NCBI RefSeq assembly: GCF_003790525.1
Contig: NZ_CP033635.1
Direction: 5' to 3' (one strand)
Length of the DNA: 64,000 bases
Source: Escherichia coli
GTDB lineage: Bacteria > Pseudomonadota > Gammaproteobacteria > Enterobacterales > Enterobacteriaceae
In this document: piece after piece, positions 22,984-24,213 of the stretch
Layout: each line of letters begins with the position of its first letter
Numbering within the stretch: position 1 is the first letter of the stretch
Made by a program: the position numbers and the translations under genes
Notes under the pieces: model-generated
What the model was told of the DNA's origin: nothing
Seen by the model: only the letters and a program-made list of their open reading frames with translations
Databases searched by the model: none

Positions 22984-23274
22984 TCATTCTGAATCTTTGA
23001 ACAAAGACAATCCTTGCGAACGCCGCCATTCTTTGACGATTTTCAGGATGTTTTCAGGTTTACCATCTTCTGGGGAATTAGGATAGAAAATGAGATCTCC
23101 CTTTTTAGGATGTTCAGTAATTTTAATGAAATGATCCACTAAGGTATCGAGATATTTTTCTAATTTTTTCCCTTTTAGGGATTTATCTTTGCTAGTTGCA
23201 TTTACTATCTCCTCAAGCATTTCAAGAAATTCACCTTCTGTGTAAAAATATATTTTGTATTTTAAATCATGCAT
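22984..23274 (-). CDS. Im9/colicin-pyocin DNase immunity protein, orphan copy 3
   Basis: MHDLKYKIYFYTEGEF...EHPKKGDLIFYP...ENILKIVKEWRRSQGLSLFKDSE; start chosen at the second ATG (9 nt after aggag); the track start at 23280 is the alternative. Confidence 0.8.
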   Translation of the reverse strand: MHDLKYKIYFYTEGEFLEMLEEIVNATSKDKSLKGKKLEKYLDTLVDHFIKITEHPKKGDLIFYPNSPEDGKPENILKIVKEWRRSQGLSLFKDSE

Positions 23275-23280
23275 ATACAT

Positions 23281-23516
23281 TATCTCCTGTAGTGAATTTC
23301 ATCATGTAGTCGAGGCGTAACAATCCTTTAATTATCAATATCATAAATTTCGCCACCACATTCAATCGCAACACTATGATATATATGGAATTCTTTAACA
23401 ATTTCCTTAGAGCCATAATACCAACCTTCAAGAGGCGCTTTTGCGATTAATCCTTGTTTTATACGTGTTTGGTTACCAGTTGAAAACTGCGCTATCAACT
23501 CCGGATACTGACTCAC
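23281..23516 (-). pseudogene. Orphan HNH-DNase C-terminal fragment 2 (premature stop)
   Basis: Homologous to the last ~78 codons of the full-length toxin; TTA to TAA after DIDN; downstream remnant still encodes RIVTPRLHDEIHYRR in frame; no 5' toxin region or ATG. Confidence 0.7.
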
Positions 23517-23625
23517 CTCCAGCCAAAGGGTATCGGTGAAAGCGGGAAATTGATAAAATAACCTAATGAGATTTCAGTATTTTACCTGTTTTTTAAGAGC
23601 ACCCACATTATTATTTTATGTTATT

Positions 23626-23658
23626 AACATCATCGCATTAGCCAGACGCGATGATGTT
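23626..23658. terminator. Conserved hairpin downstream of immunity gene 2
   Basis: Perfect 11-bp stem aacatcatcgc/gcgatgatgtt (23626-23636 / 23648-23658), loop attagccagac. Confidence 0.5.
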
Positions 23659-23682
23659 CCATATATAGTTTTATTATCTACT

Positions 23683-23973
23683 TTATTTAGAGTCTTTAAA
23701 CAAGGGTAGCCCCTGTGAACGCCGCCATTCTTTGACAATTTTCAGGATGTTTTCAGGTTCATCATCTCCCTTCTTTGCAGGATAGTAGATAAGATCGCTC
23801 ATCAACGGATGTTGTGTAATTCTGGTAAGATGTTCTTCTAGATCATCCCAATATTTGTCAAGCTCTTCCCCTTTTAATTGAGCGTTATCCCCGGTTGGAT
23901 TTGTAAACTCGCCAAGCAACTCAATGAATTCCCGCTCTGTGTAATCTTCTATTTTATTTTTAAAATCATACAT
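23683..23973 (-). CDS. Im9/colicin-pyocin DNase immunity protein, orphan copy 2
   Basis: 96 aa, MYDFKNKIEDYTEREF...QHPLMSDLIYYP...ENILKIVKEWRRSQGLPLFKDSK; aggag 8 nt upstream of ATG. Confidence 0.85.
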   Translation of the reverse strand: MYDFKNKIEDYTEREFIELLGEFTNPTGDNAQLKGEELDKYWDDLEEHLTRITQHPLMSDLIYYPAKKGDDEPENILKIVKEWRRSQGLPLFKDSK

Positions 23974-24213
23974 TTAACTATCTCCTGTAATAAATTTCAT
24001 CATGCAAATGAGGTGTGCCCTCCTTAAATTATCAATATCGTAAATTCCGCCACTATATTCAATCGCAACACGATGATATATGTGGAATTTTTTAACGATT
24101 TCTTTAGTGCCATAATGCCAACCTTCAAGTGGTGCTTTTGCGATTAATCCTTGTTTTATACGTGTTTGATTACCGCTTGAAAACTGCGCTATCAACTCCG
24201 GATACTGACTCAC
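23974..24213 (-). pseudogene. Orphan HNH-DNase C-terminal fragment 1 (frameshifted)
   Basis: Homologous to the toxin C-terminus from LWLEVSQ onward; 1-nt deletion after DIDNLR puts the conserved HDEI(Y)YRR tail out of frame; begins only with GTG in LEV. Confidence 0.7.

Follow-up and report, generated by a model that had tools for sequence, protein, structure and literature searches.

Why does a bacterium with one gene for a DNase toxin keep three divergent immunity genes behind it, set apart by broken pieces of the same toxin gene? We addressed this question for the usp locus in a 64,000-nucleotide stretch of Escherichia coli (contig NZ_CP033635.1, assembly GCF_003790525.1), which we refer to as the window. 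The DNA downstream of usp was found to be a set of recombining repeat units, in which modules of a toxin tip and an immunity gene shift between a main position, where the full-length toxin gene ends, and orphan positions downstream of it; the displaced toxin stubs decay and the immunity genes are conserved. It is very probable, in our judgement, that the array is of this kind and that the immunity genes of displaced modules are kept against variants of Usp.

Self-BLAST resolved three tandem units on the minus strand at 22927-24916, with a period of ~695 bp (~691-698 bp). The segment 24916-23626 aligned with 24225-22927 at 78.8% identity over 1314 nucleotides (nt), and 24916-24380 aligned with 23528-22983 at 78.2%, confirming an earlier sequence-only reading of this DNA in which the downstream fragments were homologous to the toxin 3' end. 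Tandem Repeats Finder did not report the array, whose period is longer than the maximum period of that program (500). Unit 1 consists of the 3' end of usp, a 593-amino-acid (aa) Hcp/S-pyocin/colicin-DNase gene, and immunity gene A, while units 2 and 3 each consist of a 5'-truncated toxin stub followed by an intact immunity gene (B and C, respectively). In a three-way alignment, the homology of the stubs to the full-length gene opened abruptly at TGGCTGGAGG (codons W-L-E-V), located at 24913 in the main gene, 24222 in stub B and 23525 in stub C, and from there it spanned the last 81 toxin codons, the immunity gene and a 155-nt spacer. Nothing from farther 5' was present in the stubs; the sequence-only reading was right about this absence, but had put the fragments at ~78 codons. 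From the TGGCTGGAGG junction the main gene and the stubs were 88-91% identical over 195 nt, and divergence between units was 9-36%, varying by segment. The order and positions proposed earlier for the stubs and immunity genes agreed with this alignment and with the minus-strand open reading frames (ORFs; 23974-24213, 23683-23973, 23328-23516 with a remnant reaching 23275, and 22984-23274). Base composition was mosaic: within usp, the GC content was ~40% in the Hcp part, 54-56% in the linker, pyocin part and first half of the DNase, and 41% in the last 81 codons, the drop starting near the junction; it was 33-39% in the immunity genes and 30-32% in the spacers.

The toxin itself was identified from its domains. 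Usp carries T6SS_HCP (PF05638, residues 28-139), Pyocin_S (PF06958, 309-450) and Col-Pyo_DNase (PF21431, 460-591) in Pfam, and NCBIfam models assigned it to TssD/Hcp and to the DNase effectors of type VI secretion systems (T6SS). Its C-terminus aligned with the DNase domains of colicins E9, E7 and E2 and of pyocin AP41, matching colicin E9 residues 30-132 with the HNH pattern HH...N...H...H, in which the HH pair, the N and both distal His are kept. The earlier description of an Hcp-borne colicin-type DNase was thus correct. The locus lies between aroP (26975-28348, plus strand) and pdhR (21764-22561, minus strand) and is the 3' half of PAIusp, the aroP-pdhR island made of usp and orfU1-3 (imu1-3). 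We found the insertion site, the protein architecture and the small colicin-type immunity genes of that island, together with near-identity to the reference usp (98.7-100% at the nucleotide level). Among the matches listed, the locus was 98.7% identical over 4 kb in UM146, NU14, IHE3034 and APEC O1 (UTI89-type B2), at the same level in many other B2 strains, and 100% identical to SMS-3-5. A virulence-gene table gives usp as UTI89_C0121.

PAIusp has been known since 2000-2001, about 25 years (Kurazono 2000; Nakano 2001; Parret & De Mot 2002; Zaw 2013; Crnigoj 2014; Rihtar 2020), and the flagged feature is not new. The literature places the island in the aroP-pdhR interval of all usp-positive genomes, and downstream of usp it has from two to four small immunity genes of colicin type; the usp sequence types uspI and uspII are distinguished, and four PAIusp subtypes, set by orfU gene order, serve typing of clinical isolates by polymerase chain reaction. 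Here the genes run uspII-orfU2-orfU3-orfU1, an arrangement that is among those underlying that subtyping. Usp is described as a non-specific HNH DNase that is toxic when expressed alone, is rescued by the orfU genes, and loses its nuclease activity on mutation of the HNH histidines. UspI and OrfU1 form a tight complex, which has been purified, and OrfU2 did not bind UspI when OrfU1 was present. As summarised in a review, Ma et al. 2017 named the same gene Hcp-ET3-4 and wrote of 'three duplications' of the immunity gene, and the review ascribes T6SS-dependent killing of bacteria to Usp/Hcp-ET3-4. Nakano 2001, Parret & De Mot 2002 and Ma 2017 apart, the usp literature that we examined did not discuss the stubs between the immunity genes, and it treated these genes as duplicates or 'associated' genes, with no orphan-module framing. 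The orphan-module reading of the stubs, the evidence from other genera and the B-type patch in the resident toxin, all described below, are absent from that literature and are modest increments to it.

Modules in main and orphan positions

Of 5426 complete E. coli genomes, 1058 carried the locus, in every case on the chromosome. Eleven E. coli loci and ~10 loci of other genera were analysed in full. The C-terminus of the main gene was of type A1 in this strain and UM146, of type A2 in ST131, and of type C* (= uspI) in ATCC 25922, EcPF40, PM06121 and MS20658. Downstream of these main genes we found the arrays A1-B-C, A2-B-C-B, A2-B, C*-A-B, C*-B-C, C*-B, A1-B-B-C and a collapsed form in which a dead toxin is followed by B. 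Among 60 evenly spaced records of the 1058, a sample biased by oversampling of ST131, ~29 had A2-B-C-B, ~13 had A1-B-C as in the window, ~9 had C*-A-B, ~5 had C*-B-C and ~4 had other arrays. In EC2641 (3988-5908), module B was tandem-duplicated, with two identical stubs and two identical immunity genes, and immunity C was 5'-truncated (270 nt annotated; 78 aa from the first in-frame ATG).

The modules did not keep to one position. Module A, in the main position here, was an intact orphan, with its frame and HNH motif, behind the C* main module in ATCC 25922 and MS20658, and it behaves as a classical displaced module. Immunity C followed the main toxin directly in ATCC 25922, EcPF40, PM06121 and Citrobacter freundii. 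The comparison across E. coli therefore placed C-type immunity behind a main toxin, as the orphan-module idea in the sequence-only reading had anticipated, but it found stub B in the main position only as a dead collapse. This occurred in NR1441 (NZ_AP040215.1, 1118-3193), in which a full-length usp is fused to stub B and only immunity B is left; the fusion is annotated as a frameshifted pseudogene and was the sole single-piece match to a chimeric query among the matches listed. That query recovered no other full-length B-type toxin from E. coli genomes among those matches. With the repaired stub as a protein query, 36 candidates gave nothing beyond short orphan ORFs, a scan of genome contigs with immunity B found nothing, and tblastn against plasmids gave no B-type toxin above 60% identity, one mislabelled E. 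coli record aside. A near-identical immunity B (97.9%, in four places) was carried by a single plasmid record, CP054241.1 (834 kb), which from its size and content is probably a mislabelled chromosome fragment.

An intact counterpart of module B was found outside E. coli. A search with the immunity B protein, followed by contig look-up, identified a B-like immunity protein (P0158, 84% identical to immunity B) encoded directly downstream of an intact 594-aa Hcp/Pyocin_S/DNase gene on enterobacterial metagenome contigs (locus L021), in a context resembling Superficieibacter. The C-terminus of the L021 toxin is WLEISKDPELMAQFSSGNQTRIKQGLTAKAPIEGWYYGPKEIVKRFQIHHQVAIEDGGEVYDIDNLRIVTPHLHDEIHYRR, and the nucleotides of its tail are B-type, with neither the deletion nor the His-to-Tyr change of E. 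coli stub B; both the B-type body and the tail (PHLHDEI) of stub B match this toxin. Synonymous divergence (dS) was 0.27 between the L021 toxin and stub B and 0.21 between the two immunity genes. Since the divergence from the L021 pair is uniform (dS ~0.2-0.27) across toxin and immunity gene, module B is a true toxin/immunity module of B type that has decayed.

In Salmonella bongori, S. enterica, Citrobacter, Kluyvera, Superficieibacter and Pseudocitrobacter we found Usp-like proteins whose C-terminus is polymorphic beyond ..FREALWLEVS.., and Pectobacterium, Lonsdalea and Salmonella carried the same toxin domains joined to PAAR or VgrG. In S. bongori, also at aroP-pdhR, the order was main toxin, immunity, orphan stub and second immunity. 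The largest array seen was that of S. enterica GCA_023082845.1 (5773-8487), in which a single usp homologue precedes four immunity genes and three stubs; in contrast to the dead stubs of E. coli, one at least of these stubs, an ORF of 116 aa, has its HNH motif intact. Superficieibacter had three immunity genes, and C. freundii, another S. enterica and Kluyvera had one each. Orphans in one genome matched main modules in another: the third S. enterica orphan matched the main module of S. bongori, and the first matched that of a different S. enterica strain. In C. freundii the main module paired a C*-like toxin (97%) with a C-like immunity (94%), and the S. bongori orphan paired an A2-like toxin (82%) with an A-like immunity (85-88%), so that toxin exosite type and immunity type co-vary across genera. 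Module A as main here and orphan in ATCC 25922, C after main toxins, B in L021 and Salmonella orphans equal to main modules together uphold the orphan-module logic.

The chromosomal setting of the family also varied. In the Superficieibacter-like genomes a yjcZ/sugar-transporter pair borders the locus on one side and an AprE-type ABC exporter operon on the other, and the Kluyvera locus adjoins alanine racemase. Usp-family loci thus occur at other chromosomal sites, and the toxin/immunity cassette is therefore mobile beyond aroP-pdhR.

Toxin stubs, immunity genes and rival explanations

Both stubs lack the first ~53 residues of the DNase domain and read FHIYH where the main gene has FQIHH. In stub B, a 1-nt deletion at ~24021/24020 shifts the frame of the last 17 codons, TAT (Tyr) at 24076-24078 stands in place of the first His of the HH pair, and the tail carries a second His-to-Tyr change. 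In stub C, the Tyr codon lies at 23379-23381 and TTA has become a TAA stop at 23330-23328. The frameshift, the stop and the His-to-Tyr change were common to all E. coli strains among the loci compared. Because each stub combines the loss of an HNH histidine to Tyr with a frameshift or a stop, both are pseudogenes and not usable as alternative tips. Polymorphisms in stub B (7 non-synonymous, 3 synonymous) were too few for a test.

We then compared the body of each toxin 3' end, from the junction to DIDN, with its tail. The bodies of A1, stub B and stub C were 88-92% identical to one another (dS 0.21-0.24) and 71-78% identical to those of A2 and C*; dS reached 1.31 between the bodies of stub C and C* and 1.37 between those of A1 and C*. 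In contrast to the bodies, the last ~53 nt of the toxin followed the immunity type: the A1 and A2 tails were 100% identical, the stub C and C* tails 92%, and the B tail was distinct. Because the body of stub C has a dS of 0.21-0.24 to A1 and B but of 1.31 to C*, stub C is not what remains of a partner of immunity C; it joins a B/A1-family body to a C-type tail. The sequence-only reading, which had paired each fragment with the immunity gene behind it, therefore stands as to homologous toxin 3' ends and fails for stub C as the cognate remnant of immunity C, its body being B-type and only its last ~50 nt C-type. The last codons of each stub contain the AGGAGA ribosome-binding site of the next immunity gene, that of immunity C lying in the 23275-23327 tail of stub C, and that of immunity A lies likewise inside the last codons of usp. 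The presence of this site would be a plain reason for the retention of at least the toxin 3' tail.

The immunity genes were found to be intact and mutually divergent, as had been proposed: all three are full ORFs, and their proteins are 65% identical to each other with the last 26 residues near invariant. RefSeq names each a 'bacteriocin immunity protein'. They aligned over nearly their full length with ImAP41, Im7, Im8, Im9 and Im2 (E values of 1e-13 to 1e-20 against Im7, Im9 and ImAP41) and carry the helix III motif HP..(S/G)DLI(F/Y)YP, corresponding to D-L-I-Y/F-Y-P of the Im family. Their N-termini are MFKEKL.. in A, MY(D/N)FK.. with ..EREFIELLGEFTNPTGDNAQ in B and M(YM)HDLKYKIYFYTEGEF.. 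in C. From the gene lengths in strain Z42, the sequences and the published Imu3 primer, we assigned A to orfU2, B to orfU3/Imu3 and C to orfU1. Over the first ~220 nt, identity was 64-67% across types and 96-100% among genes of one type; over the N-terminal 70 codons, dS between types was 1.5-1.9 with a ratio of non-synonymous to synonymous divergence of ~0.2. Because of this dS, the types A, B and C are old alleles and not recent duplicates. In the eleven E. coli loci, 31 of the 32 immunity copies were full-length, and the within-type ratio of non-synonymous to synonymous polymorphism was 0.15-0.24 for all three types, copies in orphan positions included. This pattern suggests that the immunity genes are maintained by purifying selection and that the toxin stubs are not.

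Traces of exchange between the units were seen in the immunity genes. Immunity C ends in KDSE, followed by the unique 3' flank of the island, and in each of the eleven loci the last immunity gene had KDSE and this flank while the internal ones had KDSK and a spacer. The protein database further held chimeric E. coli immunity proteins (A/B, C/B and C/A; P0156, P0161, P0165, P0169 and P0179) whose crossover points lie within the coding sequence, and we conclude from them that recombination between array members is ongoing. Unequal crossing-over and gene conversion among repeats would yield the varied arrays, the KDSE/KDSK pattern and the chimeric immunities alike.

A unit comprises a hairpin spacer, the last 81 DNase codons, a type-specific cassette (the last ~17 toxin codons and the first ~70 immunity codons) and the conserved immunity 3' end; in the mechanism that we propose, the conserved parts act as recombination substrates. 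Unequal crossing-over or gene conversion, between units or with incoming DNA, would push a former tip/immunity module downstream, and the same recombination would duplicate, delete and shuffle modules. Displaced stubs would lose their 5' part and decay, and the immunity genes would be kept by purifying selection, neutralising the strain's own Usp and the variants injected by other usp-positive strains. The extra immunities may be retained because usp-positive strains of types A1, A2 and C* meet; protection against non-self toxins would then be the selective force, and the orphan immunity genes may be co-transcribed with usp or transcribed from weak internal promoters. The purifying selection on the immunity genes and the published binding of UspI to OrfU1 lend indirect support to the view that an orphan immunity gene may protect against a matching toxin from another cell. 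Several observations weigh against this account. Immunity B was present in every array examined, those with non-B main toxins included, so that its retention is non-discriminating; the loci analysed in full are a small sample; the hairpins behind the immunity genes have no T-run; and a scan for promoters showed no enrichment, with 10 hits where 13.3 were expected from shuffles.

Other explanations of the array account for part of these data. The wording used for Hcp-ET3-4 implies that the three immunity genes are plain duplicates of the cognate gene kept for dosage, and the near-identity of the immunity 3' thirds and spacers agrees with it, as does the statement, in the review of Ma et al. 2017, that each of the three 'duplications' had a part in neutralisation of the toxin. 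We think it very unlikely, given the 65% protein identity, the dS of 1.5-1.9 in the N-terminal 70 codons, the different toxin exosite type that each immunity type follows in other strains and genera, and the failure of OrfU2 to bind UspI in the presence of OrfU1. Much the same low probability attaches to the proposal that Imu proteins act by coating DNA non-specifically instead of binding the toxin, in which case the array would not be one of specific immunities. Crnigoj et al. 2014 reported binding of Imu3 to both DNA and RNA and protection of DNA against colicin E7, and could detect no complex between Imu3 and Usp, but the effects were small (10.6% against 1.7% of transformants) and another laboratory purified the tight UspI-OrfU1 complex. 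The Im-family fold signature kept in all three proteins, their near full-length alignment with Im7, Im9 and ImAP41, and the co-variation of exosite and immunity types across genera also speak for toxin binding.

It could also be supposed that the stubs are a working reservoir of alternative tips that are swapped whole into the main gene, as with Salmonella Rhs orphans. Homology between stub and main gene from the junction onward would allow this, HNH motif and frame are intact in the orphan A of ATCC 25922 and in several S. enterica and Superficieibacter stubs, and the B-type patch in A1 suggests partial use; yet both stubs of the window are disabled by lesions common to all E. coli strains compared, and the sole natural whole-stub fusion among the matches listed, NR1441, is a frameshifted pseudogene. 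We consider this reading improbable, though less so than duplication or DNA coating. That the array was created in assembly, by a collapsed or duplicated repeat, is practically negligible: apart from the ~700-bp repeats themselves nothing points to it, the units are 9-36% diverged, the array is 100% identical in more than 20 independent complete genomes, and the same arrangement occurs in hundreds of independently assembled ones.

Recombining units with retained immunities also place the array among known systems. Like orphan cdiA-CT/cdiI, rhs-CT/rhsI and mafB-CT/mafI modules, it has 5'-truncated tips without the N-terminal delivery region, each with an immunity gene, downstream of a full gene; a module that is orphan in one strain is main in another, a 5' homology block could mediate recombination, and natural recombinants were seen. 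The resemblance to CdiA and Rhs orphan arrays noted in the sequence-only reading accordingly holds for structure, recombination block and main-position homologues, but not for functional alternative tips, as neither stub offers a potentially functional alternative toxin domain. The usp array differs further in that the truncation lies inside the toxin domain (after 38-53 DNase residues) and not at a delivery/toxin demarcation motif, in that most of each stub has its counterpart in the main gene, type specificity being confined to ~50 nt of toxin and two thirds of the immunity gene, in that both stubs are dead, and in its carrier, which is Hcp and not CdiA or Rhs. The array as a record of past toxin-tip replacements is backed by the matches of modules A, B and C elsewhere and limited by the chimeric stub C and the dead stubs.

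Plasmids for E-type colicins and orphan bacteriocin immunities in E. coli share the HNH DNase and Im families with the array, and there too the immunity outlives a toxin beside a truncated remnant; ColE3 and ColE6 carry an E8 immunity gene, and ColE9-J an E5 immunity gene with a remnant. E colicins are plasmid-borne and released, whereas the usp array is chromosomal, Hcp-fused, T6SS-delivered and a regular tandem. Orphan immunity arrays of T6SS loci, in the auxiliary clusters of Vibrio cholerae and the AID islands of Bacteroidales, likewise retain older immunities after effector replacement, but they involve other effector families, while the usp units form a homogeneous repeat with unequal crossing-over. 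According to a review that cites Kirchberger 2017, older immunity genes stay behind as effectors are replaced one after another, and protection from kin with the old effector is proposed. The array matters in practice, as usp is in wide use to mark uropathogenic and other extraintestinal E. coli and the subtyping of PAIusp rests on it. The imu genes are three old specificity types (A, B and C) and not duplicates, the DNA between them is made of decayed toxin 3' ends, and the whole acts as a recombining cassette system common to Salmonella, Citrobacter, Superficieibacter and relatives.

The immunity partner of the resident toxin

The sequence-only reading took the main toxin and the adjacent immunity A as a cognate pair. 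This pairing is doubtful. We found the A1 and A2 main genes to be near-identical over 1.5 kb except at +44 to +174 from the junction. At +20 to +174 there were 45 differences, 44 of them from +44 on, against 6 in the 300 nt upstream of the junction and none at +175 to +265; immunity A differed by 3 residues. The divergent block aligned with colicin E9 DNase residues ~72-98 and just beyond, which we take, from colicin work, to be the region in contact with the immunity protein. Stub B equalled A1 at 38 of the 45 informative sites and A2 at 3. The A1 patch was 90% identical at the nucleotide level (91% in exosite residues) to the B-type toxin of L021, and 64% and 59%, respectively, to A2.

One explanation is that the resident A1 toxin may be a gene-conversion chimera carrying a B-type patch, with immunity B as its true partner and immunity A as a leftover of an A2-type toxin. 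We hold this to be possible, a little short of probable. Besides the agreement of the patch with stub B and with L021, whose immunity is 82-84% identical to B, it draws on the A2-like partner of immunity A outside E. coli, in the S. bongori orphan, and on the location of the patch wholly inside the segment shared with the stubs, as conversion between stub and main gene predicts. Two more distant toxins of the same exosite clade, L020 and L024, are also followed by B-related immunity proteins. No E. coli genome had immunity A as its last or only immunity gene, which is compatible with B as partner; since every array has immunity B, however, it does not decide the matter. Against a chimera stand the small number of independent co-varying pairs (L021 close, L020 and L024 distant), the cross-reactivity of the Im family, through which immunity A might neutralise both A1 and A2, and the fact that in ATCC 25922 immunity A and the A1 tail have travelled together as one orphan module; which way the conversion ran is itself deduced. 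The reverse event, in which A1-like stub bodies had been overwritten by the main gene, was dropped as an explanation after the intact B-type pair was found in L021.

Crnigoj et al. 2014 reported Imu3 as the best protector, but that ranking has no bearing on the partner question, as it concerned a strain with B third and so probably uspI. If the resident toxin is a chimera, a decayed orphan stub could still donate a specificity segment, and the conflicting published results on Usp-Imu binding and protection would be explained in part. Assays would then be set up by type matching (A1-B, A2-A, uspI-C) and not by gene adjacency.

Coordinates, spacers and the junction 8-mer

Features of the usp array, with positions in the window
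Feature	Position	Strand	Description
usp (= Hcp-ET3-4)	24668-26449	minus	full-length toxin, 593 aa; ORF, Pfam, NCBIfam, RefSeq (tssD)
first TGGCTGGA 8-mer	25020-25027	minus	W475-L-D; 114 nt upstream of second copy
second TGGCTGGA 8-mer	24906-24913	minus	W513-L-E codons of main gene; start of stub homology
immunity-binding (exosite) patch	24739-24869	minus	B-type; only dense block of A1/A2 differences
immunity A	24381-24665	minus	94 aa; = orfU2 (length and sequence); directly after usp
spacer 1	24226-24380	minus	155 nt, 30% GC; hairpin 24324-24356 (-12.6 kcal/mol); homologous to S. bongori spacer
stub B	23974-24225	minus	last 81 codons of B-type DNase; dead
immunity B	23683-23973	minus	96 aa; = orfU3/Imu3; Imu3 primer sequence
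spacer 2	23529-23682	minus	154 nt; hairpin 23626-23658 (-17.7 kcal/mol)
stub C	23275-23528	minus	chimera: B-type body and C-type 3' tail (23275-23327)
immunity C	22984-23274	minus	96 aa (98 aa from alternative ATG 23280); = orfU1; last gene
terminal hairpin	22926-22960	minus	-17.8 kcal/mol; after last immunity gene; homologous to spacer hairpins

One hairpin lies 3' of each immunity gene, and the hairpins described earlier in the spacers and after the last immunity gene are real. The terminal hairpin has ATCATCAC/GTGATGAT where the spacer hairpins show ATCATCGC/GCGATGAT, a paired G:C to A:T change of the stem. Such a two-sided change that preserves pairing hints that the stem itself is selected, as a terminator or an RNA stabiliser. 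A terminator scan gave no enrichment over shuffles, and Rfam at a permissive threshold matched no known RNA family in the spacers, the two sub-threshold hits (PhrS, 21 bits against a gathering threshold of 37, and a eukaryotic long non-coding RNA) being chance matches.

A pattern search found TGGCTGGA nine times in the window, against ~2 expected, and four of these matches fell in the usp locus: apart from the two copies in the main gene, it marks the 5' edge of stub B (24215-24222) and of stub C (23518-23525). The orphan stub of S. bongori begins at the first copy and continues W-L-D-T-S-V-T-N-N-G, near the start of the DNase domain, while the E. coli stubs begin at the second and read W-L-E-V-S-Q. 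An E. coli stub thus resembles a longer stub of the Salmonella type from which the 114 nt separating the 8-mers are missing, and this placement suggests a microhomology-mediated 114-nt deletion or an alternative junction. We had also considered the 3' end of the spacer, with its in-frame RLFYHFPAFTDTLWLEV, as a diverged remnant of the N-terminal half of the DNase; this was rejected because, in the S. bongori alignment, the spacer is homologous as a spacer up to TGGCTGGA.

Elsewhere in the window, aceE (18940-21603, minus strand) is overlapped in antisense by a 757-codon open frame on the plus strand (19081-21354). This frame is most likely the shadow ORF of a gene with high expression and biased codon use, and not a gene of its own.

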